This document shows positions 2,385 through 35,574 of a stretch of DNA of 44,781 nt, piece after piece. Positions within the stretch are counted from its first letter, which is position 1; every line of letters starts with the position of its first letter. The DNA is taken from assembly GCF_004010195.1 (NCBI RefSeq), contig NC_057719.1, forward strand, positions 33,784,276 through 33,829,056, in the 5' to 3' direction. The stretch comes from Chiloscyllium plagiosum. Taxonomy: Eukaryota. The translations under genes and the position numbers were made by a program. The notes beneath the pieces are model-generated. The model had not been told where the DNA came from. It ran no database searches and saw nothing but the letters and a program-made list of their open reading frames with translations.

Positions 2385-3325
2385 TAGGACCTATTAAGAA
2401 CCACAGTGGTAATTTGTGCATGGAACCAGAATTCATAGGTAGAGTTCTAAATGAACAGCTTGTGTCAGTATTTACGAGTGAGAGAGATGATGTGGACAAA
2501 AATATCAAGGAGGAGGGCTATAATGTACTTAAAGTAGTTAGTTTAGACACAGAGGAGGTTCCGTGTGGACTGGCAGGCTTAAAGATAGATAAATCTGCAA
2601 ATCTGGATGAAATATTGTGCAAGCTGTTGAGTGAGACAAGGGAGGAAATAGCAGAGCATTAGCAATAATTTTCAATTCCGCTTTGGCCACAGGAGCAGTG
2701 CCAGTGGACTAGAAGATAGCCAATTTGGTACCACCATTCAAGAAGGGAGTAAGGGATAAATCAGGATACTACAGGCCAGTCAGTCAGGCTAACCTCAGCG
2801 GAGGGGAAACTATTGAAAGTAATTCTGAGGGACAGATTTAATCTGCATTAATTAATCAGAATCAGCAAGGCTTTTGACAAGGTCCTACATGGGAGACTAA
2901 TAGTGAAGGCAAGAGACCACGGGATCCAAGGTAAAAACAATGACTGCAGATGCTGGAAACCATATTCTGGATTAGTGGTGCTGGAAGAGCACAGCAATTC
3001 AGGCAGCATCCAAGGAGCTTTGAAATCGACGTTTTGGGCAAAAGCCCTTCATCCTGATGCTGCCTGAACTGCTGTGCTCTTCCAGCACCACTAATCCAGA
3101 ACCACGGGATCCAAGGAAACTAGGCAAATTGGTGACAGAATTGGCTGAGTGGCAGGAAGCAGAAGGTGATCTTCGAGGGGTGTTTTTGTGACAAGAAACC
3201 TGTATCCAGTGGGGTCTGCAATGATTAGTATTGGGATCTTTGCTGTTTGTGGTATATAAATGACTTAGACTTGAATGTAGGTAAGTTGATTATTAAGTCT
3301 GGGAATGATACAAAAGTTAGTTGTG
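2385..3325 (+). mobile_element. Old CR1/HER1-like LINE ORF2 fragment (pre-RT and RT part); continues at ~4150-4300 and ~7045-7306
   Basis: ORF 2414-2662 contains VLNEQLVSVFT...LKIDKS. Downstream degenerate KAFDKVLHGRL and YRPVS motifs with many stops and frameshifts. Confidence 0.85.
2932..3100. mobile_element. Inverted PLE pLTR (hairpin) insertion with 16-bp TSD
   Basis: The arm tctggattagtggtgctggaagagcacagcaattcaggcagcatc has its near reverse complement at ~3055-3100. ACCACGGGATCCAAGG occurs at 2916-2931 and 3101-3116. Confidence 0.85.
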
Positions 3326-4307: not shown

Positions 4308-4492
4308 TTCGTCACCATACTAGGTAACAGCTGCGGGGGTCTCCGGATGAAGCACAGGTGGTATAGCCTGCTTTCTACTTATGTGTTTGGGTTTCCTTGT
4401 GTTGGTGATATCATTACCTGTGGTGATATCATTTCCTGTGGTGATGTCATTTCCTGTTTGTTTGGGGTGGTAAATGGGATCCAAGTCATCAA
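4308..4492 (-). mobile_element. PLE pLTR part (second family), split from 6375-6855 by the CR1 insertion
   Basis: Collinear with the copy at 31140-31595 (gggatccaagtc / gggatctaaatc). Contains HHR stem II GTTACC-TAGTAT-GGTGAC on the minus strand. Confidence 0.7.
4403..4456. repeat. 18-bp tandem repeat x3 inside the pLTR
   Basis: tggtgatatcattacctg / tggtgatatcatttcctg / tggtgatgtcatttcctg. Confidence 0.9.
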
Positions 4493-6368: not shown

Positions 6369-6374
6369 GAAATT

Positions 6375-7043: not shown

Positions 7044-7044
7044 C

Positions 7045-11935: not shown

Positions 11936-11972
11936 GGTTCTGAGGAAGGGTCACTGGACCCAAAACATTAAT
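11936..11972 (+). ncRNA. Degenerate minimal HHR motif in a PLE pLTR fragment (~11935-12050)
   Basis: ggtt-CTGAGGA-A-GGGTC-ACTG-GACCC-AAAA-CATT-aatt. GAAA>AAAA is compatible with CpG decay. Confidence 0.55.
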
Positions 11973-12189
11973 TCTGATTCCTTGCCACAGATGCTGTCAG
12001 ATCTGCAATTTCTGTTTTTGTTTCTGATTTCCAGCATCTGCAGTTTTATGATTTTTACTAAAACCCCTGATTACTTTATTAAAGAGTAAGAAAAAAACAG
12101 AATTTCTAATGCTGATTGTAAAGATTGACCAGACATTGTCAAGATCTTAAAAGATATTCCAAGTTTGGGTCAACTTCAGGATAGCTTTA

Positions 12190-12322
12190 GGAAGGAGTAA
12201 GTGAGGACTGCAGATGTGGAGATCAGGAATGTGATGAAGGACTTATGCCTGAAACATTGACTCTCCTGCTCCTTGGATGCTGCCTGACTGGCTGTGCTTT
12301 TCCAGCACCACACTTTTTGACT
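12190..12322. mobile_element. Old inverted PLE pLTR insertion with decayed HHR
   Basis: Short minus arm (gtgaggactgcagatg...gatcag), then plus arm tgatgaaggacttatgcctgaaacattgactc... Confidence 0.7.
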
Positions 12323-13157
12323 CATATACCAGCTTGAGTCCATTTCATATCAACAACAGCCAGGTGAAACAATTGACCAATACAAAGGCAGGTTTTGATG
12401 TAAAGGTGTGGTACATATTTTAATCAAAGCTAACATAGCTGAAAGGCTAATAGAACTTGTAATTGGTTCTACATTTTATTATACCCTTCAGAATACAAAA
12501 TTCTCGACCCAGCCCATGGATCATTGATGTACGAAGGAGTGTTCAACACAATTATAGCTGGTCAGTAGCATCTTCAGGTGATTGACTGTCCAACAACTAA
12601 TGCATCCTGTTAGAATCCTCACTGACTTTTCATGATTTTTATTTTTATTCTTTTATCAATTTTGAATTATGAGCTGGAACTGACTGATGGATTTTGGGAC
12701 AGTTTGAGGTAAAAGGAAAAGAACAGAGCAAATGAGCCTTGTTTGTTTTGCAGCCAGGGGTTGGTAATTGAGCCTTGATTAATGAAAAGTTCTAACAGAC
12801 ACAGTCCCACCAGGAAGAGCATTGGGTTCAAACAAATAGCAGATGTTGGCTATTAATGAGATCAGTACCTGGAAATTGGTGCAGTGAAATCTGGCAGAGA
12901 TCCAATGTTCAAGCAGATGGCACTTGTTGAATGGTAATTGAGGACTTTAACAGTCGATCAAGGCAGAACCTGAGTTAAAATTAGTTTTTTTGAACCATGT
13001 TTTCTGTGAGATGGTCCTGGGTTGTTGCTGAGACAGCATGCAGATTTGAAAGCTCCCTGCCTAATCTGATACACCAACTTCTAGAATCCCAAAAGAAGAA
13101 AGTTGAGTTAGATGCATTGTTGTCTATGCTTAGGTGAACTGAGAAAGAGACTCTTAG

Positions 13158-13988
13158 GTGAGTGGGGGAGGGGATGAAGGTGATAGGTCAGGGAGGAGAG
13201 GGTGGAGTGGATAGGTGGTCCTTGGCTGAGTGGGAGGGGGAGTTGAAATGTTGGGCCACGGGGCGGTGTGGTTGATTGGTGCGGGTGTCCCGGAGATGTT
13301 CCCTAAAGCGCTCTGCTAGGAGGCGCCCAGTCTCCCCAATGTAGAGGAGACCGCATCATCTGCCAACATTTCCGCCACCTCCAAAAAGTCCCCACCACCA
13401 GGGATATATTTCCCTCCCCACCCCTTTCCCTCTTCCGCAACGACTGTTCCTTCCGTGACTACCTAGTCAGGTCCACGCCCCACTATGACCCACCCTCCCA
13501 TCCTGGCATTTTCCCCTGCCACCGCAGGAACTGTAAAACCTGCGCCTACACCTCCTCCCTCACCTCTATCCAAGGCCCTAAAGGAGCCTTCCACATCCAT
13601 CAAAGTTTTACCTGCACATCCACTAATATCATTTATTGTATCCGTTGCTCCCGATGCGGTTTCCTCTACATTGGGGAGACTGGGTGCCTCCTAGCAAAGC
13701 ACTTTAGGGAACATCTCCGAGACACCCGCACCAATCAACCACACCGCCCTGTGGCCCAACATTTCAACTTCCCCCTCCTACTCTGCTGAGGACATGGAGG
13801 TCCTGGGCCTCCTTCATCCCGCACCACTAGTCCAGAATCTGGTTTCCAGCATCGTCCTCATTCCTAAAGAAGGGCTTTTGCCCGAAACATCGATTTCGCT
13901 GCTCCTTGGATGCTGCCTGAACTGTTGTGCTCTTCCCGCACCACTAGTCCAGAATCTGGTTTCCAGCATCTGCAGTCATTGTTTTTAC
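13158..13988 (+). mobile_element. PLE 3' part (Zn finger, GIY-YIG, pLTR) with inverted 5' segment 13158-13336
   Basis: CHRRNCKTC and FTCTSTNIIYCIRCSRCGFLYIGETG...FREH...VAQHFN. Positions 13225-13336 are the reverse complement of ~13653-13782. Decayed HHR at ~13864-13892. Confidence 0.92.
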
Positions 13989-14009
13989 CCAGTTTAATAA
14001 CACCCTTCC

Positions 14010-14912
14010 TCTAACAAGGTGACCAAAACTGAATACAATGTTTCAAGCATGGCCTCACCAACATTCTGTACAACTGCAACATAACCTCCCAACTTCTATA
14101 CTTAGTGCCCTTACTGATGAAGTCCAGTGTGCCAAAAGCCTTCCTCACTGCCCTGTCTACCTGTGACTCCACTTTCAGAGAACTGTGCACCTGAACTCCA
14201 AGGTCCCTCTGTTCCACTACACTCCTTAAGGCCCTACCATTCACCATGAAACTCCTACCTTGATTTGACTTTCCAAAATTCAAGACCTCACACTTATCTA
14301 TATTAAACTCCGTTTACCTTTCTGGGTTTACTTCCCCAGCTGATCAAAGTCCTGCTGCAATTTCTGATAACCTTCCTCACTGTCCACAATACTGCCCTTT
14401 CTAGTGACATCAGCAAACTTACTAATCATGCCTTGTACATTTTTATACAAATCATTGATATAGATAATAAACAGTAATGGGCCCAGCACTGATCCCTGAG
14501 GCATTCCATTAGTCACAAACCTCCAGTCTGAAAAGAATCCTTCCACTACCATTCTACCAACAAGCTAACTTTCTATCTAGTTTGCCAGCTTGCCCTGGAT
14601 TCAATACAATCCAAACTTCCAGAGCAGCCTACCATGTGGTACCTTATCAAAGGCCTTACTGAAATCTATGTTGACCACATCTACTACTCTGCCCTTGTCA
14701 ACCTTCTTGGTCACTTTACCAAAGAACTCTAACAAATTTGTGAGGCATGATCTCCCACTCACAAAGCCATGCTGACTACTCCTAATCAATTCATGTATAT
14801 CTTATCATTCAGAATCTTCTCAAGTACCTCACCCACAACAGATGTTAAGTTTACTGGTCTATAGTTCCCAAGTTTTTCTTTGCAGCCCTTCTTGAATGAT
14901 GGCACAACATTC
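14010..14912 (-). mobile_element. CR1-like LINE RT fragment
   Basis: ORFs with SQHGFVSGRSCLTNLLEFF...[24 protein letters not shown]...KFAD and QRDLGVQV. Confidence 0.95.
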
Positions 14913-15399
14913 GTTCTTTTTCCTTTCAAAGATTTACTGCTTAGTTTGTTTTTCTGTCTATCTATTGTGTGTATGGGACTGAAACCAAAGGTAATGGGTT
15001 TAAATCATAGACATTAATTAGATTACTTTATTGCTCAACTTTTCTCTGCTAAAGCTACTGCACTGTTAACAAATTGTTAAGTATTTTGTTTAAACTATAA
15101 ACCTGGTGTCTAGGATTGATTATTTACAAAGTCTAGGACTGGTTATTCAAAATGTCTGGTTAGAAACCATTTGGTCAATTTTTAGGGTCTTTGAAAGTTT
15201 TAGTTTTACTGTTTTTCAAATACAAACATAATGAGGTTGATTTGATTTATCTGTCTGGCTACGTGTTGAAGGCTGATAGGATACTATCATTTATTAAGAA
15301 AGGAATTAAACATAAAAGTTTACAGTCACAATTATAATATCAAAGTTACATGATATTATAAAGATGTGCAGGTTAGATGGATTGGCCATGCTTAATTGC

Positions 15400-15499
15400 T
15401 GTCAAGATGAGAGTGGTGCTGGAAAAGTACAGCAGGTCAGGCAGCATTGGAGGAGCGGGAAAATTGATGTTTCGGGCAAAAGCCCTTCATCAGGAATGA
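15400..15499 (-). mobile_element. PLE pLTR fragment with HHR core
   Basis: Minus strand CTGATGA-A-GGGC-TTTT-GCCC-GAAA-CATC. Flanks gcttaattgc (15390-15399) and gctaaattgc (15500-15509). Confidence 0.8.
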
Positions 15500-15671
15500 G
15501 CTAAATTGCCCGATAGTGTCCAGGATTGTGCAGGCTAGACAGATTAGCTCCAGTAAATGCAGAGTTATGGGGAATGGATGTGGTGTGGTGTTGCTGGAAT
15601 GCTATTTGGTGAGTCAGTGCAGACTAAATGAACTGAACAGCAATTCAGGCAGCATCCGAAAAGCTTCGAAA

Positions 15672-15704
15672 TCGACGTTTCGGGCAAAAGCCCTTCATCA
15701 GGAA
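15672..15704 (-). ncRNA. Minimal type I HHR motif, intact core
   Basis: Minus strand ttc-CTGATGA-A-GGGC-TTTT-GCCC-GAAA-C-GTC-ga. Palindromic ACGT in place of helix III; stem I is very short. Confidence 0.75.
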
Positions 15705-16420
15705 TAAAGGCAGAGAGCCTGAAGCGTGGAGAGATAAGCTAGAGGAGGGTGGGGGTGGGGATAGAGTAGCATAGAGTACAATAGGTCAGTGGGGGAGGAG
15801 ATGAAGGTGATAGGTCAGGAAGGAGAGGGTGGTGTGGATAGTGGAAAAGGAGCTGGGCAGGTCGGACAAGCCCGGACAAGNNNNNNNNNNNNNNNNNNNN
15901 NNNNNNNNNNNNNNNNNNNNNNNNNNNNNNNNNNNNNNNNNNNNNNNNNNNNNNNNNNNNNNNNNNNNNNNNNNNNNNNNNNNNNNNNNNNNNNNNNNNN
16001 NNNNNNNNNNNNNNNNNNNNNNNNNNNNNNNNNNNNNNNNNNNNNNNNNNNNNNNNNNNNNNNNNNNNNNNNNNNNNNNNNNNNNNNNNNNNNNNNNNNN
16101 NNNNNNNNNNNNNNNNNNNNNNNNNNNNNNNNNNNNNNNNNNNNNNNNNNNNNNNNNNNNNNNNNNNNNNNNNNNNNNNNNNNNNNNNNNNNNNNNNNNN
16201 NNNNNNNNNNNNCTAAACTTCCAGCTCAGCACTGTCCCCATGACCTGTCCGGACTTGTCCTACCTGCCTAGCTCCTTTTCCACCTATCCACTCCACCCTC
16301 TCCTCCCTGACCTATCACCTTCATCTCCTCCCCCACTGACCTATTGTACTCTATGCTACTCTATCCCCACCCCCACCCTCCTCTAGCTTATCTCTCCACG
16401 CTTCAGGCTCACTGCCTTTA

Positions 16421-16453
16421 TTCCTGATGAAGGGCTTTTGCCCGAAACATCGA
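16421..16453 (+). ncRNA. Minimal HHR motif (GUC>AUC variant)
   Basis: ttc-CTGATGA-A-GGGC-TTTT-GCCC-GAAA-C-ATC-ga. Confidence 0.68.
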
Positions 16454-16639
16454 TTTCGAAGCTTTTCGGATGCTGCCTGAACTGCTGTGCTCTTCCAGCA
16501 CCACTGATCCAGAATCTGGTTTCCAGCATCTGCAGTCATTGTTTTTACCACCTAAATGAACTGAACTCTATCTGCACTGTAGGATGCTATGACTCTATGA
16601 TATCTGTTTTACTATAGAGATATCACTTTTGTTACACAA

Positions 16640-17160
16640 GGCATTGGTGAAACCACATTTTGCTTAGTATGTACAGACTTGATCTCCTTATTTAAGGAAG
16701 AAAGCAAATGCTCTGAATTTTGTTCAGAGGGGGTTTATTTGATCAATAACTGGAATGAGTGGATTGTCTCATGAAGATAGGTTGGACAGATTGTCCTTGT
16801 TCCACTGGAGTTTAGAAGAGGTGAGAAGCGATTTGATTGAAGCGTATAAAATCCTGAAAGGTCTCAACAAGTGGACATGGTAAAGAAGTGACCCCAGAAC
16901 TGCTTTAAATTTAGTTGTCACTCTTTCATGGCAAGGATGAGGAAAAATGGGGTTTCTCCCAGAGGTGTGTAGGACTTTGGAACTTTCTGCACTTGAAGGG
17001 GTTGGAAGCGGGATTATTGAGTTTTGTTTAAGAAGTGGTGGATAGATTCTTGTTAACAAAAGGAATGAAAGGTTAAATGGGAATGTGGAAATAAAAATAC
17101 ACTCAGATCAGCTGTGATCTTATTGAATGGTTGACTTCTGCTCCTATTTTGTATGTTTCT
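16640..17160 (+). mobile_element. Old CR1-like LINE 3' fragment
   Basis: Degenerate YKALVRPHL / LFPLEFRRVRSDLIEAYKILKG segment plus CR1-type 3' UTR. Confidence 0.8.
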
Positions 17161-17639
17161 ATTTTTCCTTGTCAAGAATGGTAAGTTCCATAGAAATAAT
17201 TTTGTATTAGCAATCACTGCACTTTGAAATTATTAACTAGGAGTAATTTTAGCCTAGTATAATGTTGTACAATGGTGTAATTAGAATTAACAGCTTATTT
17301 TGTATTTTCTCCATTGTTACATACATTGACTTTACAACAAGTGGAGCTTATGTAAGTAGATGTAGAGAATTTGGTAAATATTCTTTCGTTTCATGTCAGG
17401 CAGTGATGGGTAGCAGCCTTGTACAATCAAATAACAAGACTTGGACTGGAATGTGATTAAAGTTGGAGTGCACTGGGTTATAATTAGCAGAGTAATACCA
17501 CCTTGTATATATTATAATTAGAGTTGTACAATTTGCATTGACTTCTTTGCTTTCATCAGCCATCTAATATTCTGCAAATCAAAGAAAATCCATAGTATTT
17601 CAGAGATGTGATCAATGCAGATCATTGAAAGAAAGAGAT

Positions 17640-18110
17640 AATGTTTACACAGCAGCCTTCATGTCCTCAGGACACCCTGAAATGCTTCATCAGTTGTCAC
17701 TCTTGTAAAGCAGGAAGAGATAGTAGCTGAAAATGTGTTGCTGGAAAAGCGCAGCAGGTCAGGTAGCATCCAAGGAACAGGAGAATCGACGTTTCGGGCA
17801 TAAGCCCTTCTTCGGCTTTTGCCCGAAACGTCGATTCTCCTGTTCCTAGGATGCTGCCTGACCTGCTGCGCTTTTCCAGCAACACATTTTCAGCTCTGAT
17901 CTCCAGCATCTGCAGTCCTCACTTTCTCCAGGAAGAGATAGTACCCTATTTATGCAAAGTGAGATCCCACAAAAATCAATGAGATGAATATCCAGGTAAT
18001 TTAGTTTGGTGATGTTGGTTAACCGATAAATATTCAGTAAAAGTATTAAACAATCCCCTCCTTACTGCTTTTTGGTGAGTGCTATGCAATTATTTACATT
18101 CAGCTAAACA
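17640..18110 (-). mobile_element. Ancient DeuSINE/SacSINE1-like relic
   Basis: Motifs gcaaagtgagatcccacaaa...aatgagatgaat...ggtgatgttggtt resemble the reverse of the Deu domain. Similar to 18345-18725 and ~19690-19865. Confidence 0.5.
17726..17928. mobile_element. Inverted PLE pLTR hairpin insertion with 15-bp TSD
   Basis: Near-perfect arms ~17725-17800 and ~17820-17895. CAGGAAGAGATAGTA occurs at 17711-17725 and 17929-17943. Confidence 0.92.
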
Positions 18111-18344
18111 GTGAAATGGGTCCAACACAGGCCTCCATGACTGTCAGGTGAATTTTACATCCCAGACATTTTAAAATCACGTTGGATTCCTAGGTAAACC
18201 ATTAGAATTTATTAATAAGACTCCCTTCTAAGTTTGACAGGCATCTGCCATTAGTAAAGAACAAGAATAAGATTGAAGTTGCAAATGGAGGCACTTGCTT
18301 TTAATCCCTTTGCTGCCTAAGTATCAGACATGGATCAGGCTGCA

Positions 18345-18725
18345 GCATGCTTGCTACTGAGTTAAAGGGCTATGAATTCCAATCTTACATCAAAGTCTTG
18401 AACAAAATACTGCATTACTGAATGAGTGCTACACTGCTCAAGGTGTTGTCTTGAAGATAGGGCCCTACACTGAGAATTAAACTACATTAAGGAGGATGTG
18501 ACAGATCAATTTTGAAGAGAAGGTGAGATATTCCTGATGTATTGATTAATAATAATCAAGAACTCAACATCGCGAAAACCAAGATAAACTGATTAAGAGC
18601 ACATTGTTATTTGTGGTTCTTACTGTACACAAATTGGCTGTATCCTATATTGTATTATTGCAGTAATTCCCTCATAAGTACCAAACTGACTACAAAATGC
18701 TTTAGAATATCCTGGGGTTGCAGAA
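18345..18725 (+). mobile_element. Ancient DeuSINE/SacSINE1-like relic
   Basis: tttgaagag...ctcaacatc...cattgttatttgtggttcttactgtacacaaattggctg...atgctttagaatatcctg. Confidence 0.55.
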
Positions 18726-19994
18726 GACACAACAAAAATAAAAGAATTTAATTTCATTTTTGCAAATAAAAGGAGTTAAATTCCCCAGTTGAGGCCTAAA
18801 CCTATAATGTTCTGTGTTGGATAGGATACAATTAGATAGCAAACTATATTGAGTATTTTCAGGCATTTCCCTTTCAACCTCTGAAAACTGAAATGAATAT
18901 GTTTCAGGAAAAGGACTGCCCCAGTTGTAATATATTTCTTTCAATCTTGAAGGCATAAGAAAAGACAGTGAAAGTCACTTCTAGTACAACAGCTACAATT
19001 GCTCCCTTGATAATTGCATTTGTGATTAATTGCAGTCTTTCCCATGCTGGGATTATGTGATAGTAATTAACGGGAGTAAACTGAATCCTTACTTCACATA
19101 GTTTGAAGTCTGCTGGGATTGACAAGGACACAAAAATGTCACTACTTTGTAGTGATATATCAATATCTAAGTAGAGCTAAATGTTCTTGTGCTTATCACA
19201 TATGAAAATACCAGCTGTCCTCCATCCAATGATTTCTAATACCTCAGAAGAAGTGGACATTTGTGCATCTATGGACTGTCTAAATTCAAAATATTTAAAG
19301 AGTTAAAAACATTCAGATTAAAGATGTCATGAGAGACATGTAAATGGTTGACTAATGAATTAAGACAAATACCTCTTCAATGTTCAATGGAATTATTGAA
19401 GTAATTGAATCAGGACATGTGAACTTGGTTGTCTGCTTTCCTAAGTGTTGAACCAGACTACGCAGATCGAAAACATTGATCAAAATATGCTTCACAACAA
19501 ATTAATCTTACACAATCATGTTTGGAAATGTTTGGAACAGGATTTAGTAAACAGACAAAAGGATCTCCATTGGAGATGGGGAAGGTTAAGAAGCGGCAAC
19601 AAATGCTTATTGAAGATGAACGGTAAAATAGTTCGGGGAGGGGGAATGGTTTGTGGGAGAAATGGAAAATAACTCGCATTACCCAATCTTGTTCAGACGG
19701 CATTCCAAAGCTCTTCACATGCAATAAATTCCTTTGGAACAAGAGTCGCTCCTGCTGTGCAGACAAGCACAGCTGCCATTTTGTAAAACATTGAAGTCCC
19801 AAAAACATAGGATGGATCTTTTTAATAGTGAATCTGTTTTCTATGATGTTGATTGAGGGAGGTGATGAGCTCACCTCCTGACTATCCAAACCCTTCACTT
19901 CACCGACAAGTGAGAAATACTCTCCACTTTCTTGGATGAGTTCACGTCGAACATTATTCAAGCAACCTGATATCATCCAGGAAAAAGCATTGTA

Positions 19995-20414
19995 AACAAA
20001 AAAAATACTGGAAATCACAACAAATCAGGCAGCATCCATGGAGAGAGAGCAAGCTAATGTTTCAAGTTTAGATGACTCTTCATCAGAGCTGACCTGGAAA
20101 GACTCCCATTCCTTCTCTTTCTTTTAGCTTTATTTGTTACATTCTGTGTCACCATGTCCTCTCTCTCTTCCCCCCACTGCAATGGGACAGTCTGGTGTTT
20201 TCTGTTTGGTAGTTATTGTTCTGTCATTCTCACATTCCAATCACTTAATCTGCACTATCAACACCCTTTCTTGTCCAGCATTCCACACCCCACCCCCAAC
20301 TCTCACTATTGCATAAATGCTACCCTCTCCACAGTTCACATCAGCTCTGATGAAGAGTCATCTAGATTATTCTCCCTCCATGGAGGCTGTCGGACCTGCT
20401 GTGATTTCCAACAT
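19995..20414. mobile_element. Inverted PLE pLTR insertion (third family)
   Basis: tggaaatcac...ccatggagagag...gatgactcttcatcagagctga is mirrored by tcagctctgatgaagagtcatct...ctccatgga...gtgatttcca. Confidence 0.75.
20052..20090 (-). ncRNA. Minimal HHR motif with 4-bp stem I
   Basis: Minus strand AGCT-CTGATGA-A-GAGTC-ATCTA-AACTT-GAAA-C-ATT-AGCT. Stem II is partly decayed. Confidence 0.62.
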
Positions 20415-23400
20415 CATAAAAACTCCCTTCCTTGATTTACATTGATTACTGCCCTTGTGGTCTTTTGTAATGAGCTGAAGCAGTAAAGTTATAAATATAT
20501 GATCTAAAACACAGCACCATTTATATTATGAAATCTTGCACCAAAGTGTGATCTTACCTTCTGTGTTAAGCCCTAGAGTAGATCTTAAAACTACAGCCTC
20601 TAATTTAGAAATGTGATGATCTCACTGGACTGCGCTGAATGTTGAAGGGCGCATGCATAATTAAAATGACAGTCATTAGAGATGGAGCAAAGAAAATGGA
20701 AAATCTATCATATCTTCATTCTAATTGCAGCAGGAGATGGTGGGGAAGAAATTGTTTAGATGGGATGGTGTGACACTTACTGCAATGCTGTCTGCATCTA
20801 GATCCCCTGAAAACACATACTTATGCCATTATTTACCAACTTCTCTTTACTGTCAATCAACTCCCATTCATACCCTTCATCATACTCTGTCAGACCTTTT
20901 GAGGAATTCTGCCTGCGTTTCTCATTCTTATTTCACTGGAGATGGTAACTGGGTTTTGCACCACATTTCTGAAGAAGAGGAGCAGCTCCATGGAAATTCT
21001 GGACCAATATCTGCATGTTAGCCTAATTTGGTTTGAAGTTCGTAGTTTGTGCATATGTGCGTAATGCTTCTTACTACTGTAGTTCTGCTTAATTACAGTG
21101 TGTAAAGCAGGTGCCTATGCCTTTAACTTCTGTTGTTTGTGAATTCACTTTCTCGTGGAAGCTGAGTGCTAAGGTCTGCTACAGGGAGCACCTCATTTCC
21201 TATTTTGTGGGAAGCTGGACCATGCGTCTTTTCAGCTACATGTTCTAGTGTTGAGTTGGAGGGCACATGTACTGTAATCATCATCCATGTTTCCTTCCTG
21301 GTGTACTGTTAGTAATGGTTCTCTTGTTTCTACAATATCATTAATCTGAAGGAAGGTGTACATAATAGTCTCAATGAACTAAGTGAAAGGCTGCATCTAG
21401 GTTGTTTGCAAATGGTTATCAAGCCTGTCAGTAGTGGAAAGATGGCCCTCTCCAATCTGCTGCCTGAAGTCACTGGAGCAACTCTGAATAGGGAGCATAG
21501 ATTGATATAAAGCCTTCTGAGGTAGAATTGACTGCTGAACAATTTCTTGGAACTCCTTTTGCTCCATAGTAGATTGCTGTACAAACTCCTCCTTATAAAC
21601 TCCCACACTGCCACCTAAGGTATGACTTACAGAACTCAGATTGACAAGGATTCTAGTACCTGCAGTACTATTTCTATCAACATAGGCTATGAAAAATAGC
21701 TTAAAGGGGATGCATTCTGATTTACTGTACCTTCCTGCACACATGCCACTACTCTCTGCTCCTATTGATTTGTGCTCTGTGTATCATGAAGTGTACATGA
21801 GTTAGTGAGGACTCTTTACTTTCTGACGGTGAGGGACAATGTAGTAATAACACATGATTGATTGCACTCTCCAGGAGATGTTAGGTCATTTTCAACTTTA
21901 TATTGTCTGCTGTAGAAATGGTGGATGCTAATAAATTCAAATATGTCTGTCATTCAGCATTAAGGTGGTCACAATGGAAAACATAATGCAGATGATATAT
22001 GACGATTTGTTGATGCACTCCATAACACAGAGTAACAGAAGAAAATGAATGTGGAGGTACATATAGACAAGGACCCATTCCAGGATTGCGAGAAAACTGA
22101 TAAAACTCAAACAAAAACTGCTGCTTGTCTAATGTAGTAAGTGTGTGGACAGTGTGGCCAACTCCCTTTACCTTAAATGCCTTTTTACTTTGGCAGGAAA
22201 TTAAAGAGCCTGATTACCTCACTCTATAATCCCGAGATCCTATCATCCTTTAAGAAGCTACCCTCCCCTCTCCTGCTTCTAAATGCGGTCTGAATAATTT
22301 CCATATCAATTTTGTCAAATCTCAACTCTGTGCCCTGTAGTCAGTATGAGAAAAGCATGAAGAGCTTCAAACTCTCGGTTTAAAAGCTTGCTACAGCTTA
22401 TCCACTCCCAGTTAAATCAAATGACATTTAGAGTACTTGACATTTTCCTGTGCTTCACACATCAGGTGGGCCGAGAAATTGTTGTGGGGTCAGTCCAGCT
22501 AAAGTCTTCCCCATTATCTTGTGCTGGGAATCACACTTCCAGGAAAGCTTTAGATTCATGTCAGAGAATAGCACTAGGAATTTGATTTCTAAAAAAAAGG
22601 AACCTTAGTAAAAACAGAAAGATGAGAAATTAACTCAAACTTTCTTTACAACTGGTCATTCATATTTTAATATAAACATATTATTTGATGCAATTTACTA
22701 AAACTGAAACGCAATTGGCTCAGACATATTGAAGTATTTAAAAGCCAGGTTCAAAGGGAAGTGGCTTATTAGAATTCAAAACACATATTGAATTTTCACT
22801 TCAATCTTTTAGTTCAACATCACAAATTCCCTATGTCTTGGAAAATATAACGGAAATATCTATTGAATTGTAATCCCTCTTATGTTGTAGAAAGAATAAT
22901 TGCCATTTTAATCAATATGCATCAGCTCTCTTTTCAGCTGAGGCAAGTGTTGCAAAAACTGTCAGTTTCAAACAAGTAGTGTCTGCAGCGTGGAGATACA
23001 AACAAATCAGAAAGATGGAGCTTGTAAGCCAATGTCTCAGAGGAATTAATGCCCTGTCATAACACTCAATGCACGTTACAGGGTCTCTTGGTAAGCTGGA
23101 ATCCTATTGTTACATTGAGACCACCAAGTTCTGTCAGATAATTACTAATTTGAACATGCACATGAGATTCCCAAGTAGAAACTATTTCAGAGATTACTGT
23201 CATTGGAGAAAGACAGGATGCTTTTTTTTTACTTTAATAATAACAAAAGGAAATAGCAAAAATAGTTTACCTTGATATCTTGAAAAGCTGTTTGATTGCT
23301 TTGTCCTCACTCGTATATTTTGTATTTCAAATACTCTTTAAGCTCGTGTCTGAAATATATTGTCTCTGCTTCCACCATAACCGAAACCAAAGACATATTA

Positions 23401-23809
23401 GTTACTGCATCTGTATAGTTAGGTGTAATTAAATCAGCAAAATATTGTTCGCTGCTTCCAACTCAATACTATGGGAATAGATTTAAAAATGTCAAACTGT
23501 AAGAAAATGATAGTCAAGCTAGGTAAACTAGTTTGGTAAAACATAAGACAGAAAGGAAGAGGCAATAGTTGAGGCAAACAGCTTCAATGGTTTAAAAATG
23601 AATTAGATAAGCATAGGACAGAAAATAAAGCACTGTAAGGTGGGATTGTGCTAGATAGAAAGAAAGGAAATGTAGATGGAACGTAAGTGTCAGAATAGGA
23701 ATCTGTATCTATCACAAGGCAATATATACTGGATGCTTACATTTTTGAGAAAGTTTGTAGCTCAAATTGATGATATGGATGTGAGTTAGCTCACTGAGCT
23801 GGAGGTTAA

Positions 23810-24322
23810 GGGGGTAGAGGGGCAGGTTGGTGAGGTGAGGATAAGTGAAGACAGGTAGAGGGTACGACCCAGTCATTGCTCATTTTAATTCCCCTTCCCA
23901 CTCCCTTTCCGACATGACCATCCTTGGCCTCCCCATTGCTACAATGAATCAAACCGCAAATTGGAGGAACAAAACCTCATCCTCCGCCCTGGGCAGCCTA
24001 CAGCCTGGAGGACTCAATATTGAGCTCTCCAATTTCAAATAACCTCCCTTCCCTTCCCCGACTACCTTTCCAGCCCCTCCCTCCCTTCTATTCCTCTCAG
24101 ACACCAACCGGATTCATTCCTCCCATCGACCAATCAGGTTGTACTGTCTATTTGACTTCACCTATCCCTCCATCACCACCCTGCCCATTTCCCCCCAACA
24201 TTATCTGCAGCTCCCCTTACACCCACCCCAGCCTTGAAGAAAGGTTACACCTGAAACATTGACTTCTCCAATTCCTGATGCTGCCTGGCTTGCTGTGTTC
24301 TCCCAGCCTTCTGCTTGTCTAT
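23810..24322 (+). mobile_element. Old PLE 3' end (GIY-YIG C-terminus, pLTR, decayed HHR at ~24234-24262) with short inverted 5' piece
   Basis: PVIAHFNSPSHSLSDMTILGL...LGSLQPGGLNIELSNF, followed by ttgaagaaaggttacacctgaaacattgac. Confidence 0.85.
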
Positions 24323-25435
24323 TGACATTTATTGCTATCTTCCTCACTATATTATTACATTTCTGAGCTTTGTACCATTTGTAAATTTCAAACCTTACTT
24401 GCATATACCCTTACTTCCAATTCATCAGTATATATCAAAAACAATCATGGTCCTGATGCTGAACTATGTATGTCATTGATGCATTCTCTTTGAAATCTTT
24501 TGAAGTCTAACAGAAGTCCTTTGGATAGATAAAATGTATTGAAATAATACTTTTCACTAACGAAGGTATCTGAGTATTTGAGATGTTTCTTGTACCACAA
24601 CTAATTTTTTATTGACATCAAGGTGTTGATTTAGAGTCATAGAGTCATAGATGTACATTTGAAAAAGGTACATTTGGTAAACAGGAGAATGAAGCTGGAT
24701 AAATAGAAGAAGATAATGTCCCTACAGACTTTACCCATCTTGGTCACATGTGTGAAGTTATTTGATTCTGTTTTGCATTGTATGTCAAATTTTGGGATGG
24801 TAGCTACATAAATGCATCATATTGTCCAAGTGTTGTTTCAAAATTGGTTCAACTGTATTGAGCTTAGGTAATGATCCAATGATGACACCCTGTCCCCCAT
24901 CTAATTATTACCAAAGGCAACATTTCTCAAGATTTAATACATTTTGCAAAAATATCTCTTCAAAGGTACATTTCACTTCATGGCAAATTATTACATAACA
25001 AGTGTCTCAATAGGTGCTTCTATAACAAATACTATTCTGTACTTAGATTGCAGTTAATGCACCTTCCATATAAAATAACTATATTTCTAACATGGTTAGT
25101 TCTGAACACATTTGCTTTTGGTATTCATGTACTCGGCATGTATTTTATTTACTTTCTGACATTGCCTGCCAAGCATTGGAATAAAGTATCTAAGCACAGT
25201 CTATAAATAGACATAACCTGTACTTAAGTTTACCAATACTCCCTTCCAGTGCAAATACTTTAAAATGAATTGTTAGAAGCATGAGTTTTCTTGGTGATAG
25301 CTGCTTTAATTCTGCCCTTTCCATCAAGCATAAATATTGTTATGGATCATTTGAGCATTAGGTCAATTGTCAAAAAAGAATTAGAGTGTTTGCATGATGT
25401 TTACTTTAACCCAAAAACGTCAATGTGATAATGTA

Positions 25436-25635
25436 GCTGAAAATGTGTTGCTGGAAAAGCGCAGCAGGTCAGGCAGCATCCAAGGAGCAGGAGAATCGAC
25501 GTTTCGGGCATGAGCCCTTCTTCAGGAATGCTCATGCCCGAAACGTCGATTCTCCTGCTCCTTGGATGCTGCCTGACCTGCTGCACTTTTCCAGCAACAC
25601 ATTTTCAGCTCTGATCTCCAGCATCTGCAATTCTC
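25436..25635. mobile_element. Inverted PLE pLTR hairpin insertion with 15-bp TSD
   Basis: Arms ~25435-25515 and ~25530-25610. CAATGTGATAATGTA occurs at 25421-25435 and 25636-25650. Confidence 0.92.
25496..25528 (-). ncRNA. Minimal type I HHR motif, intact core
   Basis: Minus strand ttc-CTGAAGA-A-GGGC-TCAT-GCCC-GAAA-C-GTC-ga. Confidence 0.72.
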
Positions 25636-26884
25636 CAATGTGATAATGTATCAATGGTTTGAGAATTAAGTGAATATATATATTAGAAATGCTTTGTGAT
25701 GACAGCACAGCGTGAAATGTTAAAGCATTCTGCCTATTACCCTATTTATAAACAGTCAGAGAATGGTGTAAATGACATTTATTCCTACGTTTATGTAACT
25801 TTGCAACTGATACAGCAGCAGGTATGCAAGTGAATTCATTATGCCCTGTCCTACTCTACTGCAGGTAGCCATTATGGAGGTATATCATTTCCACCTCCCC
25901 AGCAGAGAAGGCAGTATAAGAAAATGCTCAGAACTTCAACATATTACACTCCCTTCCCACTTACTGGCAAAAATGTATGTATTAAGATGTGAAATGGTAC
26001 AAGTACAGAATTTCCTAGAATATATAAATAAACCAAAATCAACATACTGAAATTTAATAGGTTAGATTGTATGTCTCTTTTTAACTGTAATCATAACCAA
26101 AATACACATATAAATAACACACCAGAGTAATGTACATGGAAACAAACATTTTTCTTCAATGTCATCAAGTATTTAACAAAAGCGTCATCATTTAACAAGA
26201 AGTATTCAAATGCACAATTTATTTCTTCTTTCTACCTATGTATTTTAAGTTAGCCAACCCCCCCACCAACTCCCCAGCTTCTTTTTTCCTTTATCTATCT
26301 CCTTCTATTTCAAATTGCTCGACTAATCTCTCTCAACATCTCTGACTGCATCAATTTTGAACTTTTATTTTGGCTGCAAATTGCACTAGGACTTTACCAT
26401 TGGAATTCCTTCCTTAGTTAATTTATTGCTACCAAAAATCCTGACCCACTTTGTTCAAATAGTGGATTTTGTAGTATTAGAAAATGTTCTGTTACTTTTT
26501 GACTGTCACTTTATTTGGGTTGTTGGATTAATTTAAAGTTTGTATTTTTATCATGTTCTCTCTTTATCAGATTTCCTCTTTGAAGAAAATGAACTACATG
26601 ATACTAATGGAGTATTCATTCAATCTTAATTCAATATATGAATGCATCCAGTCTGTTTAAAACAACTTCAATTGCATAGTGCTTATCACCACAATGGTAT
26701 TTCACAATGAGTTTGAACCAGCACGGAACTCCTCATTTTTCATGCCTGCTCACAACTCAACTTTAGTTTGCATTGTTTTCTTTTATTTTACTATGATATC
26801 AGAGTTAAGTGAACTTAGCCCTGTCCTAGGAGTATGTATGAGTTAATTTCTCATCTTTCTGTTTTTATTAAGATTTATTTTTTT

Positions 26885-27283
26885 TCTCTCTGGAGAGAAG
26901 AAGGAAGAGAGGAGACCTGATTGAAATGTACAAAATAATGAGTGGAATAGATACCATCAATAGCCAGGGACTTTTCCCCAGGGCAGGATTGACTGGTACA
27001 AGGAGTCATAGTTTGAAGATAATAGGAGGAAGGTATAAAGGAAATGTCAGAGTTAGGTTCTTTACGCCGAGAGTTGTGAATGCAAGGAATGAGTTGCCAG
27101 CTGTGATGGTGGAAGCAGAGTCATTGGGGACATTTAAGTGACTGCTAGACATGCACATGGATAGCAGTGAGTTGAGGGGTGCGTAGGTTAAGTTACTATA
27201 TTTTACAATAGAATTAGACCTCGGCACAACATTTTGGGCCAAAGGGCCTGTTCTGAGCTGTACTTTTCTATATTCTATGTTCT
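26885..27283 (+). mobile_element. CR1-like LINE 3' fragment
   Basis: GDLIEMYKIMSGID...TRSHSLK...FFTPRVVNARNELP, with tail ttctatattctatgttcta. Confidence 0.92.
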
Positions 27284-27699
27284 AACTCACAGTGGCATTC
27301 TATTACACAGATTTAAATCTTTCCTACACCAACTGTTAAACTGAACAATCTGAAGGAAACTGAGGGGTTATTCGGGAAAGGAACAAAAAAAAGTCCAGCC
27401 TGCATTGAAGAGAAAGAGAAATTACTGCCTGTCAGAAAATACTTCTGCAAAGATCTGTTAACAAACCTTTGCAGCAGTATTCAGTGGTAAGTGGTAATAT
27501 TATAGTGTTCTTACAGTGACTCTGCTCTTAATTATAAATATTTCAAACTCTTCTGATGTAAACTACTTGCTGTAACTTATGACTAAAACAAGGTACTCTT
27601 TCCCTTCCAAATTAAAGAATTTGACATCGAGTCATTTCCACTGCTTCCTCGTATTTATTTGTAAATTGAAAGGAATCCTGGCTTGATTATTTCTCATTC

Positions 27700-29020
27700 T
27701 GAGACACGCTTCATAACTGCTCACCAACACATTAAATTCTCTACCTAGGTTTGAATATAAAGAAAGTTTCTTGTTACTACTTTCATACAGACTATCTCTT
27801 TGCGTTCATGTCGAAATTTCTCGAACAATCTTCCTCTAAATCTAGTTGGAGTAATGACCCTTAAACCTCATAAGAGACTCTTTAAGATATACTCAGGTTA
27901 TTTTTACATTTGCAATACTCTTGCAGTTTTGCATTGTTATACTCCAAGGCTATACTTAGCATCATATCCTTGTGAGTTTTTTTTTTTACTAATTTCTCTG
28001 ATAGACATTGTCATGTGATTCATATATAGAAAGTAATTTTCAGGTAAAGCTGTGGCTAAAAATAAATTGATCTCAACAGGAAATTTTAAGAGAATACCAA
28101 TAATTGTATGATCCACTGATTTCTTGTATTTAATCTTGTACTGATAAGCCATCAAAATCAGTGTCAACCTCTGAACATCTCCTGCTCCGAGGGATGGTAT
28201 TCTTTGGAAGGCAAGGTTAGACCACTTTGTGTACTACTGTGAATAATTCTCCCCTGTATCATCTACAGAGAATTCCTTCCATCAATGATACTTTCTTCCC
28301 TTTTACTACTCTGAACAGCAAGTAATAGGATGCAATATTGCAATCCACTTTAGTACAAACTCACCCAAAAAACTGTTAGTAGAGTCAGTTTTACACTGGT
28401 TTTACAATAATGGACATTTGTACTCTCTGATATTATGGACTCAGCTGCAGCTGTTTCAATGATAGAAATAAGTTATGAATCTCAGATTTTCCTGTGGACT
28501 GTGGATGATGAACTTTCACCATGGGCCCTAATATCCTCATTTTCTACGTGGTAATTGGTTTTTCTCCCTGACCTACGACAGATCTCTAGATATTCCTGCT
28601 CAATGACATTAACCTCTATTTCCACACCTACCATATGCACCTTCAAAAATTTATAGGCTCCTAAACTAGCTTTAGATCTTCAACAACATTAACCCTGGTA
28701 CATGGCTGAAGCTTGGAGCAGTGCTATTTCCTCTGCTCCACAACCTGGAGAGGACCAACTTTCCTGTAGACATTGTGCTTTGATTGGAAACAGACGATGG
28801 TGATCTAAATGGAAAAATCTAATTTCCTGACACTCAGGTAGTGAACTTGGCAAGCCTGGCCTAGATCATGCTGAAGTCTACTGAAACTCCCTGCTGGTCC
28901 CAAAAATGAACTTCCTTGTAGGCCAAAACTATTTCTTTCTGCCATTTCCATAGCTGTGCACATATCTTAGACCACTTCAATGTCTGCTTATTGTGTTTCT
29001 TCAAAAACTTGACCAATATT
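27700..29020 (-). mobile_element. Highly decayed Ty3/Gypsy LTR retrotransposon remnant (gag and RNase H-linker pieces)
   Basis: QRLTLILMAYQYKIKYKKSVDH...LLKFPV resembles the Gypsy RNase H C-terminus (QRWALxLxAYxYxIxYRK...ADALSRLP). TAMEMAERN near 28935-28960 resembles Gypsy gag. Confidence 0.65.
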
Positions 29021-29027
29021 TTATTGT

Positions 29028-29534
29028 GGAGGAGAAAGTGAGGACTCCAGATGCTGGAGATCAGAGCTGAAAATGTGTTGCTAGAAAAGTGCAGCAGGTC
29101 AGGCAGCATCCAAGGAGCAGGAGAATCGACGTTTCAGGCATAAGCCCTTCTTGTGGTTGGAAGGTTCCACAAGGGATGAACTCAGATTTCTCCAGTTTCC
29201 TCATTTCCCCTCCCCCCACCTTGTCTCAGTCAAATCCCTCGAACTCAGCACCGCCTTCCTAATCTGCAATCTTCTTCCTGACCTCTCTGCCCCCATCCAC
29301 TCCGGCCTATCACCCTCACCTTGACCTCCTTACACCTATCGCATTTCCAACGCCATTCCCCCAAGTCCCTCCTCTCTACCTTTTATCTTAGCCTGGTGGG
29401 CATACTTTCCTCATTCCTGAAGAAGGGCTTATGCCCGAAACATCGATTCTCCTGCTCCTTGGATGCTGCCTGACTTTTCCAGCAACACATTTTCAGCTCT
29501 GATCTCCAGCATCTGCAGTCCTCACTTTCTCCTC
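29028..29534. mobile_element. Inverted PLE pLTR pair
   Basis: 29028-29152 is a near reverse complement of ~29420-29534. The plus-strand pLTR runs ~29175-29534. Confidence 0.9.
29414..29446 (+). ncRNA. Minimal HHR motif (AUC variant)
   Basis: ttc-CTGAAGA-A-GGGC-TTAT-GCCC-GAAA-C-ATC-ga. Confidence 0.66.
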
Positions 29535-29604
29535 AATGGTTATGCACTACCCCAAAAGTGCCACCATTACAGTGAAGAAAAAAAATCCTTTTTCTCTGTT
29601 TTAT

Positions 29605-29955
29605 TTAGATTAGATTACATTACAGTGTGGAAACAGGTCCTTCGGCCCAACAAGTCCACACCGACCCGCCGAAGCGCAATCCACCCATACCCCTGCATTT
29701 ACCCCTTACCTAACACTACGGGCAATTTAGCATGGCCAATTCACCTTACCTGCACATCTTTGGACAGTGGGAGGAAACCGGATCACCCGGAGGAAACCCA
29801 CGCAGACACGGGGAGAACGCGCAAATTCCACACAGTCAGTCGCCTGAGGCGGGAACTGAACCCGGGTCTCAGGCGCTGTGAGGCAGCAGTGCTAACCACT
29901 GTGCCACCGTGCCACCCACTGCCACTGTGCTGCCCACTGCCACCGTGCCGCCCAC
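29605..29955 (-). mobile_element. Full-length HE1-like tRNA-derived V-SINE
   Basis: Minus strand has A box tggcacagtgg, B-box-like ggttcagttcc, V-domain gttctccccgtgtctgcgtgggtttcctccggg and a (tctaa)n tail. Confidence 0.92.
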
Positions 29956-30214
29956 TTTCAAACTTTATTGATACTTTATTGATACTTACACTCATTCTCT
30001 TTGTTAGGATTGAATTCCCCCATTTCCCATATCGCTGTAGCTATTGTAATGAAGCCAGTCAGCTGGATGTCATAGAATATGAATTCACTGATTTGTTCTG
30101 TATATCTGGTCCAATCAGAAAGCCCTGGCTGACATAAAAAAGGTTGCATGTCGGAGATACTGACACTCTGGTGCCTGACTGTGTATGGGGCAGTACTATA
30201 GTCAAAGCCTTGGA

Positions 30215-30895
30215 GTTCAGGTTCATTGTTCCTAAAAGTGGAGTCGCAGGTAGATAGGATAGTGAAGGAGGCATTTGGTATGCTTTCCTTTATTGGTCAG
30301 AGCATCGAGTACAGGAGTCAGGACATTGTGTTATAGCTGTACAGGACATTGGTTAGGCCACTTTTGGAATATTGTGTGCAATTTTGGTCTCCTTCCTATT
30401 GGAAGGATGTTGTGAAACTTGAAAGGGTTCAGAAAAGATTTACAAGGATGTTGCCAGAGTTGGAGAGTTTGAGCTATAGTGAGAGGCTGAATAGACTGGG
30501 GCTTTTTTCCCTGGAGCGTCGGAGTTTAGGGATTAAGCTTATCGAGATTTATAAAATCATGAGGGGCATAGATAGGGTAAATAGACAAGGTCTGTTCCCT
30601 GGGGTGGGGGAGTCCAGAACTAGAGGGCATAGGTTTAGCGTGAGAGGGGAAAGATATAGAAGGGACCTAAGGTGTGGCTTTTTCACACAGAGGATGGTGC
30701 GTGTATGGAATGAGCTGCTAGAGAATGTGCTGGAGGCTGGTACAATTACAACATTTAAAAGGCTGCTGGATGGGTATATGAATAAGAAGGATTTAGAGGA
30801 ATATGGGACTAGATTAATTTGGGATACCTGGTTGGCATGGACAAGTTGGACTGAAGGATCTGTTTCCGTGCTGTACATCTCTATGACTCTGTGAC
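30215..30895 (+). mobile_element. CR1/HER1-like LINE 3' fragment
   Basis: ORF 30349-30894 reads VRPLLEYCVQFWSP...LERVQKRFTRM...RTRGH. Tail ctctatgactctgtga. Confidence 0.95.
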
Positions 30896-30984
30896 AGTTC
30901 TTGTGTAAATAAAGGGTGACTGAGTGATGGGATACCAGCCTGTGTTTAGTTATTTCTAGAATCATTTTTGTCCATGTTTGAACC

Positions 30985-32160
30985 AAGGCTGGAATGAAGT
31001 CAGGGGCTGAGTGGTCCTGGCAAAACCCAAACTGAACTGCTTGTTGAGCTGCTTGTTGTTAGGCAAGTGCTGCTTGACAGCACTGTTGATGACACTTCTA
31101 CTGATGATTGAGGGAAAACTAATGGAGCAGTAATTAGTATGTAAGTTAGCTCGCTGAGCTGGAAGCTTTGTTTTCAGATGTTTTGTGACTAGGTAACATC
31201 ATCAGTGAAGCACTGGTGGTATGTCCCACCTCTCTACTTATAGGTTTTGTTTCTCAAGGTGGCTGATGTTATTTCCAGTTTTTTTTTCAAGACAAGGCAG
31301 ATGGGATCTAAATCGATGTGCTTATTGATGGTGTTCTGGCTGGAATCCCATGTCTCTAAGAATTCTCATGCATGTCTTTGTTTTGCCTGTGCTAGGATGT
31401 GTGCGTTGTCCCAGTCAAAGTGGTGTCCTTTTTTGTCTGTCTGTATGGAAACAAGTGATAGTGGGTCATGTCTTTTGGTGGCTAGTTGGCATTCATGTAT
31501 CCTGGTGGCAAGTTTCCTGCTTGTTTGTCCGATGTAGTGTTTTTCACAGTTCTTACATGATATCTTGTAAATGACGTTAGTTTTGCTGCTGCTGTTGTTA
31601 GTCCATGGTGCCTCATGGAGCTCAGTCTAGAGTATTTGAGCTCTGTCTCATTTGACAGAGTGGTAGTGCCACATAGCATGATGAAAGGTATTCTCATTGT
31701 GGAAATGGAATTTTCTCTCCACAAAGACTTGTGTGGTGGTCATTCTTATCAATACTATTATGGACAGATTCATCTACAACAGGCAGAGAAAGAGGTCAAG
31801 TATGTTTTTCCTTCTTGTTGGTTCCCTCATAAGCTACTGCAGACCCAGTCTAGCAGCTATGGCTTTTAGGACATGATCAGCTCAAACTGTAGTGCTTCTG
31901 CCAAGCCACCTTTGGTGGTGGGCATAGAAATTCCCCACATAGAGTAAATTCTGCACCCTTACCACCCTCTGTGCTTTCTCCAAATGTTATTCAACACGGA
32001 GAAGGATTGATTCATTAGCCAAAGGAGAACAACACATGTTAATCAGCATGAGGTTTCCTTACCCATATTTGACCTGATGACATGAGATTTCATCTTGACG
32101 GGAGTCACTGTTTGCAGGCTCCCAGGGCAACACCTTCCCAACTGTATACCGCTGTGCCTG
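30985..32160 (-). mobile_element. Second CR1-clade LINE family (endonuclease/RT pieces), interrupted by a PLE at 31140-31595
   Basis: 30985-31110 is the reverse of the QFGFRQGHSAP / KQHLL segment seen at ~34080-34150. ~31850-32160 resembles a decayed endonuclease region. Confidence 0.65.
31140..31595 (-). mobile_element. PLE GIY-YIG plus pLTR (same family as 4308/6375), with decayed HHR at 31172-31209
   Basis: Minus strand SKTNVIYKISCKNCEKHYIGQTSRKLATRIHE, and TTCA-CTGATGA-T-GTTAC-CTA-GTCAC-AAAA-C-ATC-TGAA. Confidence 0.85.
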
Positions 32161-35478: not shown

Positions 35479-35574
35479 CCTGTTAAGTTTTGATGAGACC
35501 ATGTAAATCCTAATTGTATTCTAGAGGGATAGCTGTGTCATGGGCATCAAACCTTTGAGTAAATGAGGATTACT

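Follow-up and report, generated by a model that had tools for sequence, protein, structure and literature searches.

Introduction

Do the minimal hammerhead ribozymes that Penelope-like elements (PLEs) carry in their pseudo-long terminal repeats (pLTRs) cut RNA in animal cells, and for what purpose? This is a standing question (PMC4209133, PMC11167929, PMC8557442): PMC8557442 calls the function of the PLE hammerhead unclear, and PMC4209133 states that in vivo evidence of cleavage by minimal hammerheads is lacking. A stretch of 44,781 nucleotides from the shark Chiloscyllium plagiosum (contig NC_057719.1, positions 33,784,276 to 33,829,056), called the window below, raises it again, as a sequence-only reading had noticed many hammerhead-like cores with paired stems there and had ascribed them to PLE pLTRs. 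Judged by sequence, these motifs are a real feature and belong to a known class, the type I minimal hammerheads of PLE pLTRs. We regard it as quite probable that at least five endonuclease-bearing PLE families carry such hammerheads, that their copies are dead stubs made mostly from uncut RNA, and that a minority of the transcripts is cut after GUC in vivo.

Results and Discussion

Hammerhead motifs and their helices

Using a descriptor (CTGAnGA, one nucleotide, a stem II no shorter than 3 bp and GAAAC[G/A]TH) we obtained six matches in the window and none in 200 Markov shuffles or in the reversed window. The same descriptor gave 68 matches against 0 reversed in 118 random 10-kb stretches of this genome, and genome-wide the sequence-only pattern CTGADGAWG-N7-16-CGAAANNT matched 225,390 times against 312 reversed. 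One 30-mer of the GGGC family alone has 48,069 genome matches, and exact patterns for four smaller families have 333, 190, 1,069 and 743.

A plain scan finds motifs where the sequence-only reading had placed them, in a number far above chance (0 in 200 shuffles). Its count of at least ten recurring cores holds when damaged copies are included, about 11 damaged pieces lying beside the six motifs with an intact core, but not for intact cores. The PLE pLTR origin stands as well, but the families in the window are five, and become six or seven only if the GGGC loop variants are counted separately. Among the copies listed before, those at 13.9k, 17.8k, 29.1k and 24.2k have an altered or lost 5' core, the one at 11.9k reads AAAA for GAAA, and the one at 4.3k has kept stem II but has lost both halves of the core. 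Those at 15.7k and 16.4k are not separate items but both arms of a single insertion with a 15-bp target duplication, and the copies at 17.8k and 25.5k each lie within their own fold-back insertion, again with 15-bp duplications. In the 17.8k fold-back (17784-17856) one arm has TTAT in loop II and the other TTTT, perhaps because two templates were used or because of a later mutation.

The core CUGANGA...GAAA, U16.1 and H17, which define membership in the minimal type I class, are present in the six window copies and in all family consensuses. Helix II begins with G10.1-C11.1 and one additional base after A9 and has stems of 4-6 bp; in the majority lines of old families C11.1 has turned into T by CpG decay. 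Helix III, said to be often decayed from ACGT to ACAT, has retained ACGT in only two of the six intact-core copies, 15678(-) and 25502(-). The stretches 15672-15704 and 25496-25528, which had been put forward for cleavage assays, reach just 2 nt beyond the cut site and come from subfamilies with a U-U mismatch. Rfam, proposed as a check, gave 12 matches at E up to 5, none of them to a hammerhead family; its miRNA matches at 17.8k and 25.5k were rejected as fold-back arms, and its U6 match at 30390-30482 (21 bits, cut-off 44) as lying inside a LINE (long interspersed element) fragment. A further family absent from the window, F7 (L086, L117, L138), has a longer stem II with an internal A-G or G-G mismatch.

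Helix I is demanded by none of the searches and therefore offers a fair test of covariation. Majority lines, each built for one family from 4-27 copies, open helix I with the triplets TTC/GAA, GTT/AAC, GCT/AGC, GTC/GAC, TCA/TGA, GCA/TGC and CAC/GTG, so that 21 of 21 positions pair over the seven consensuses; this was matched by 1 of 5040 reassignments, with a mean of 10.6, in a permutation that ignores kinship. With the TTAT subfamily used instead, 20 of 21 pairs remain (2/5040 permutations), as a U-U mismatch stands at the third pair (ATTC/GATT) in five GGGC loop variants, among them the dominant TTTT, TTAT, TCAT and TAAT subfamilies. The stem I variant TTCA/TGAA reported at 31.2k is the product of a 12-nt deletion in that copy, the pairing of family H being TCA/TGA. 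The covariation had been taken to indicate selection on RNA structure, which is upheld between families but not within the genome, where no selection on 38 copies was seen in a hand count (25/228 differences in the 5' core versus 18/342 at nine invariant flank positions). Since mutations have spared the core no more than the flank, it was the active master elements that were under selection and not the genomic copies after insertion.

The helix III palindrome is ACGT, or its CpG-decayed form ACAT, versus AGCT in a family absent from the window, and thus offers a single switch. The proposal that a helix III reduced to ACGT is a chondrichthyan variant fails because the same form is already published for other animals: the alignment in the supplement of PMC4209133 contains GAAA-CGU-H in fish (fugu), lamprey, Xenopus and many invertebrates, and GCU in a turtle.

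The host element

The open reading frame (ORF) fragment at 13355-13774 is 51% identical to a 902-aa protein with RVT_1 and GIY-YIG domains. Its nearest named relatives come from Chiloscyllium, Rhincodon and Rhinoraja, the carpet sharks among them agreeing with the chondrichthyan host suggested before. A GIY-YIG ORF just upstream of the motif also supports the assignment to PLE pLTRs: in 24 of 33 rows, or 23 of 32 distinct loci including the window's own, the endonuclease has a hammerhead on the same strand within the next 1.2 kb downstream, and the GGGC-TTTT hammerhead typically lies 381 nt after the matched part of the ORF and about 105 nt before the end of the element. An endonuclease was found upstream of 5/20 family G and 2/20 family H copies, in addition to both in the window, and of 1/37 copies in F4-6 and 0/7 in F7. 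Families D and E are linked to PLEs by 1/20 copies each and by the common downstream motif.

An ORF with reverse transcriptase (RT) and C-terminal GIY-YIG domains upstream of the pLTR, the test for endonuclease-bearing PLEs, was found for families A, G and H, and the hallmarks of these elements are all present (partial tandems, inverted pLTRs, target duplications and a tail of 30-40 nt). One of the 30 loci matched by the RT N-terminus, L284, is a partial tandem in which the pLTR end is followed by a 38-nt leader and the ORF; L334 is another. Family H may be Poseidon-like. In the window, a Cys-rich linker (C-HRRN-C-KT-C, 13517-13546) precedes the endonuclease. Such a zinc-finger-like linker is described as a trait of Neptune and Nematis (PMC8557442), and by this motif the fragment fits these clades. 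A Pfam search of the PLE fragments in the window gave no match, and they were placed through their relatives instead. Long apparent open frames from the genome search were discarded as assembly gaps, no full-length ORF being recovered among the matches listed, and a common splice junction between ORF and hammerhead was not found in 24 copies with scattered deletions.

Where the short copies start

To describe copy ends we set C3 as position 0, so that -4 is the first base of helix I and +28 the first base after GUC, the cut site. From 227 distinct copies anchored downstream of the hammerhead, 93 could be measured against a reference and 85 remained after 8 had been dropped for N. Starts fall at -5..+9 in 47 of these 85 copies, with the mode at -4 (12 copies), and at the cut site in 4. 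Loose ends cluster at -4 also in public data, in 140 and 137 RNA reads and in 75 and 153 contigs, all of them genomic junctions and not RNA ends.

Short copies start about 30 nt past a TATA-like box, in four families at the first base of the hammerhead and in the fifth about 15 nt earlier. In families D, E and G, TATA-like boxes lie near -33 to -37 and breaks at -8..0 in 15/20, 12/20 and 11/20 copies chosen for an intact core; at the hammerhead 15670..15705(-) of the window, TTATCT stands about 32 nt upstream of 15705. In family H the TATAAA box lies further out, at -48, and all 5 of its short copies have their breakpoint at -18 or -15. As both its TATA box and its breakpoint are shifted upstream, the shared 5' boundary follows promoter spacing and not the fold. 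TATA and initiator (Inr) motifs have been described in pLTRs (PMC3846280, PMC2377424). The shared start is likely the transcription start of the element, and the short copies were likely made from uncut RNA, because they begin at this TATA-spaced point and rarely at the cut site.

It is unlikely, though the best surviving of the other explanations, that the RNA fold or fold-back self-priming at helix I sets the boundary instead of the transcript start. Self-priming has been proposed for inverted pLTRs (PMC3846280) and would suit the junction microhomology and the many fold-backs, which make up 27 of 67 ATTC-starting copies that have no upstream untranslated region (UTR). It does not account for the nine simple insertions with target duplications whose start is likewise at -4 and whose end lies about 60 or 96-101 nt past the cut site, nor for family H, whose boundary stays with the TATA box 15 nt off the hammerhead edge. 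The 3' ends of short copies fall at two points about 35 nt apart, the spacing of the PLE tail.

U6 fusions at the predicted cut bond

A second kind of boundary comes from fusions to U6 small nuclear RNA. In the best 30 of 48 U6 matches, four are joined to PLE sequence, two at the first base after GUC and two within the endonuclease region. An exact pattern for a U6 tail lying no more than 30 nt from the downstream pLTR block found six fusions genome-wide, 6/6 at the first base after GUC, whereas a separate pattern for fusions with a retained upstream core found none. One locus is common to the best 30 U6 matches and the six fusions, so that 7 of 7 distinct U6-pLTR fusions sit at the predicted bond, compared with 4 of 70 ordinary copy ends in the range detectable by the pattern (hand count). 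The fusions differ in pLTR variant, U6 length and flanks. Since the fusion in L334 continues for 531 nt via the leader into the ORF, its cut RNA came from the upstream pLTR. With all seven junctions at the exact predicted bond, they likely record ribozyme cleavage in vivo.

Hammerhead cleavage leaves a 5'-OH. RtcB joins the cyclic phosphate of U6 to RNA with such an end (PMC6789731) and, as both its substrates would be present, RtcB-type ligation of U6 to the cut RNA is the likely route of fusion; template switching may be an alternative, in view of the U6 loci joined to SINE (short interspersed element) 5' ends, but would still need an RNA end at +28. Two U6 loci have further peculiarities: in L311 a tRNA-like sequence directly follows the U6 3' end, and in L339:1300-1560 two tandem U6 3' segments precede a pLTR that starts at the cut site.

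The motifs might also be conserved RNA structures that bind protein or pair two templates without cutting themselves, a host nuclease or RT pausing producing the ends at +28. Such structures would suit the origin of most copies from uncut RNA, the weak helix I of the largest subfamilies and the low in vitro activity reported for minimal hammerheads (PMC4209133). We nevertheless find this improbable, as it leaves the U6 junctions on the exact hammerhead bond, where ordinary ends are rare, and the catalytic residues kept in all family consensuses without a cause, and a pausing RT would meet helix I at about +31 and not at +28. That the short copies represent an independent, non-autonomous element (retrozyme or SINE-like) spreading via cleaved circular monomers is very improbable in spite of their high number and of pLTR-derived retrozymes reported in one chondrichthyan (bioRxiv 2026.07.22.740005), because the window holds no tandem motif array, copies start at a promoter-defined point and are not permuted around the cut, and identical pLTRs stand behind the ORF.

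Weighing cleavage and a capped start

Several results weigh against cleavage in vivo and against a start set by the promoter. About 11 of the 30 U6 loci, judged by eye, join the 5' end of a SINE family, and because SINE 5' ends are joined as well, a U6 fusion need not mean ligation to a 5'-OH. No more than 93 of the 227 anchored copies were measurable, the helix I mismatch affects the most abundant subfamilies, and ViennaRNA does not fold the 36-mers into a hammerhead, neither as monomer nor as dimer. Neither the cut site nor the start point showed an accumulation of read starts or ends in a sample of one poly(A) single-cell run (about 2%), which is a weak test because the library is fragmented. 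In the Anolis carolinensis element PAc no reads ended at the cut site, and the ribozyme was dispensable for insertion in vitro (Frangieh 2024, PMC11167929). The base preceding ATTC, a possible trace of the cap, also belongs here. It is a G in 15 of 30 simple junctions and, counted by eye among the first 100 of 11,782 non-C matches (many of them fold-backs), in 63, but all 6 testable cases place this G within the target duplication. An untemplated cap G is therefore not demonstrated; fold-back junctions are mostly ambiguous, L142 having a G on both arms, and AT follows the downstream copy of the duplication in 6 of 9 cases. The pattern fits a cap-derived C pairing with the target and falls short of proof.

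Taking cleavage of a minority of transcripts as our preferred reading, we propose the following course. Transcription by Pol II would begin with a capped start in the upstream pLTR. The RT would prime internally, as shown for Anolis PAc, at 95-135 nt into the RNA, and by running off the front of the RNA it would leave solo or fold-back stubs. The hammerhead would cut probably as a dimer held by the 4-nt palindrome, perhaps aided by protein, and RtcB-type ligation might attach its 5'-OH product to U6 before the chimera is retrotransposed. We also think it rather probable, with less assurance than for the ribozymes and their dead copies, that both states of PLE RNA have left a fossil record in the genome: run-off copies, in the hundreds of thousands, would map the capped start at the first base of the hammerhead, and the U6 fusions the ribozyme-made 5'-OH end.

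Comparison with known systems

The minimal hammerheads of Cervera and De la Pena 2014 (PMC4209133) agree with ours in the CUGANGA core, an extra nucleotide before G10.1-C11.1, a helix I of 3-4 bp, the palindromic 15.1-16.1, the lack of loop 3, the many families per genome and the prevalence of solo copies with some opposite-strand pairs. Unlike here, no chondrichthyan stands in the excerpted part of their alignment, and our genome-wide total is far above their copy numbers of about 4,000 (coelacanth) and 9,000 (Xenopus), to which it is not directly comparable, a looser pattern having been used here. PAc, a Poseidon element, likewise carries the hammerhead close to the front of its transcript, is copied chiefly from uncut RNA, is primed on both strands and has two 3' ends, 30-40 nt apart, that stem from internal starts of the RT; its ORF, however, starts within the hammerhead, whereas in L284 the ORF starts past the pLTR end, and U6 fusions mark the cut site here where PAc has no reads (PMC11167929). 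U6/LINE-1 chimeras (Moldovan et al. 2019, PMC6789731) also consist of a U6 ending in five U and a retrotransposon RNA, joined through RtcB and then retrotransposed, but their junctions are variably 5'-truncated, in contrast to pLTR junctions that all sit at the ribozyme bond. Non-LTR retrozymes (Li, Clavereau, Pollet 2026, bioRxiv 10.64898/2026.07.22.740005) share the type I hammerhead, the pLTR origin and one chondrichthyan host, and form head-to-tail arrays instead of dispersed solo or fold-back stubs; our search for such arrays with a hammerhead per unit covered the window and found none. Neither shark Penelope hammerheads nor U6-PLE hammerhead fusions were found in print, although Repbase/Dfam, subscription journals and supplements, which lay outside the search, may list shark families.

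Other features of the window

Features are collected in Table 1. The second family H-type remnant is accompanied by a frame with a PFLD motif, which we take to be like the RT C-terminus. The LINE fragments, which we assume to be CR1-like, include RVT_1 at 5145-5924(-) and Exo_endo_phos at 9220-9711(+) according to Pfam. Several copies of a SINE-like repeat (families D10, D12, D13 and D20) lie at 29610-29960 and 34413-35845. Assembly gaps at about 9941-10590 and 15881-16212 comprise 978 N in total, the second being inside the inverted PLE insertion.

Table 1: Repeat-derived features by position in the window, with U6-SINE chimeras given by locus.
Feature	Position	Strand	Basis or remark
PLE RT N-terminal region, DKG motif	1..261	-	
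Fold-back GGGC pLTR insertion, 16-bp target duplication	2916..3116	.	outside range of the sequence-only reading
Hammerhead remnant in 2916..3116 insertion	3024-3053	-	
Family H pLTR remnant, stem II retained, core gone on both sides	4308..4488	-	
LINE fragments	4576-5924, 9220-9714, 14011-14313, 30337-30894, 37183-37788, 44468-44779		
Second family H-type PLE remnant and RT C-terminal-like frame	6373-6657 and 6846-7181		endonuclease 6399-6629(-)
Minimal hammerhead, family D (GGGTC-ACTG-GACCC), G12>A and CpG decay	11936..11973	+	sequence scan
Decayed GGGC-family hammerhead in short fold-back pLTR stub	12232..12262	+	sequence scan; absent from earlier list
Inverted partial copy of PLE ORF fragment	13155-13355	-	adjoins fragment at 13355
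PLE ORF fragment, C-x4-C-x2-C linker and GIY-YIG endonuclease	13355..13774	+	tblastn to P0005, E=2e-33
GGGC-TTTT-GCCC hammerhead, G5>A, in 3' pLTR of 13355..13774 fragment	13860..13895	+	pLTR end ~13990
GGGC-TTTT-GCCC hammerhead, ACAT decay, short stub	15462..15497	-	descriptor
Single inverted (diverging-arm) PLE insertion, 15-bp target duplication at 15624 and 16552	15624..16566	.	contains assembly gap
Intact-core hammerhead (ACGT, GUC)	15670..15705	-	descriptor; predicted cut between 15674 and 15673
Hammerhead of other arm of 15624..16566 insertion, ACAT decay	16420..16455	+	16420 is common start point of short copies
Fold-back pLTR insertion, 15-bp target duplication	17711..17943	.	repeat and duplication analysis
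Hammerhead remnant in 17711..17943 insertion, U4>C, helix I 5' strand lost	17784-17815	-	
Minimal hammerhead, family E (GAGTC-ATCTA-GACTC type), helix I AGCT/AGCT	20052..20090	-	descriptor
Family G PLE 3' end with 3' UTR	23868..24321	+	endonuclease C-terminus 23869-24030; hammerhead 24230-24264 (C3>T)
Fold-back pLTR insertion, 15-bp target duplication	25421..25650	.	
Intact-core hammerhead in 25421..25650 insertion, starting exactly at ATTC	25494-25529	-	descriptor
GGGC-TTAT pLTR stub, truncated within core	29029..29152	-	
GGGC-TTAT-GCCC hammerhead, ACAT decay, 3' UTR upstream	29413..29448	+	descriptor; pLTR to 29532
Family H PLE 3' end	31139..31614	-	endonuclease fragment 31303-31614; internally deleted hammerhead 31174-31208
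U6-SINE chimeras	L308, L315, L316, L320, L325, L328-L333	U6 strand	by eye; junction ~locus position 1607

Conclusion

The motifs alone are ordinary, their class being already published, and what is added here are two boundary patterns, the run-off starts and the U6 junctions. Shared start points map PLE promoters without RNA data, and U6 junctions at the exact bond offer a cheap cleavage test for any PLE-rich genome. If the proposed reading is true, it would count as evidence for in vivo cleavage by the minimal hammerheads of metazoans, even where helix I has 2 bp plus a mismatch, and the cut would trim the front of the full-length PLE transcript.

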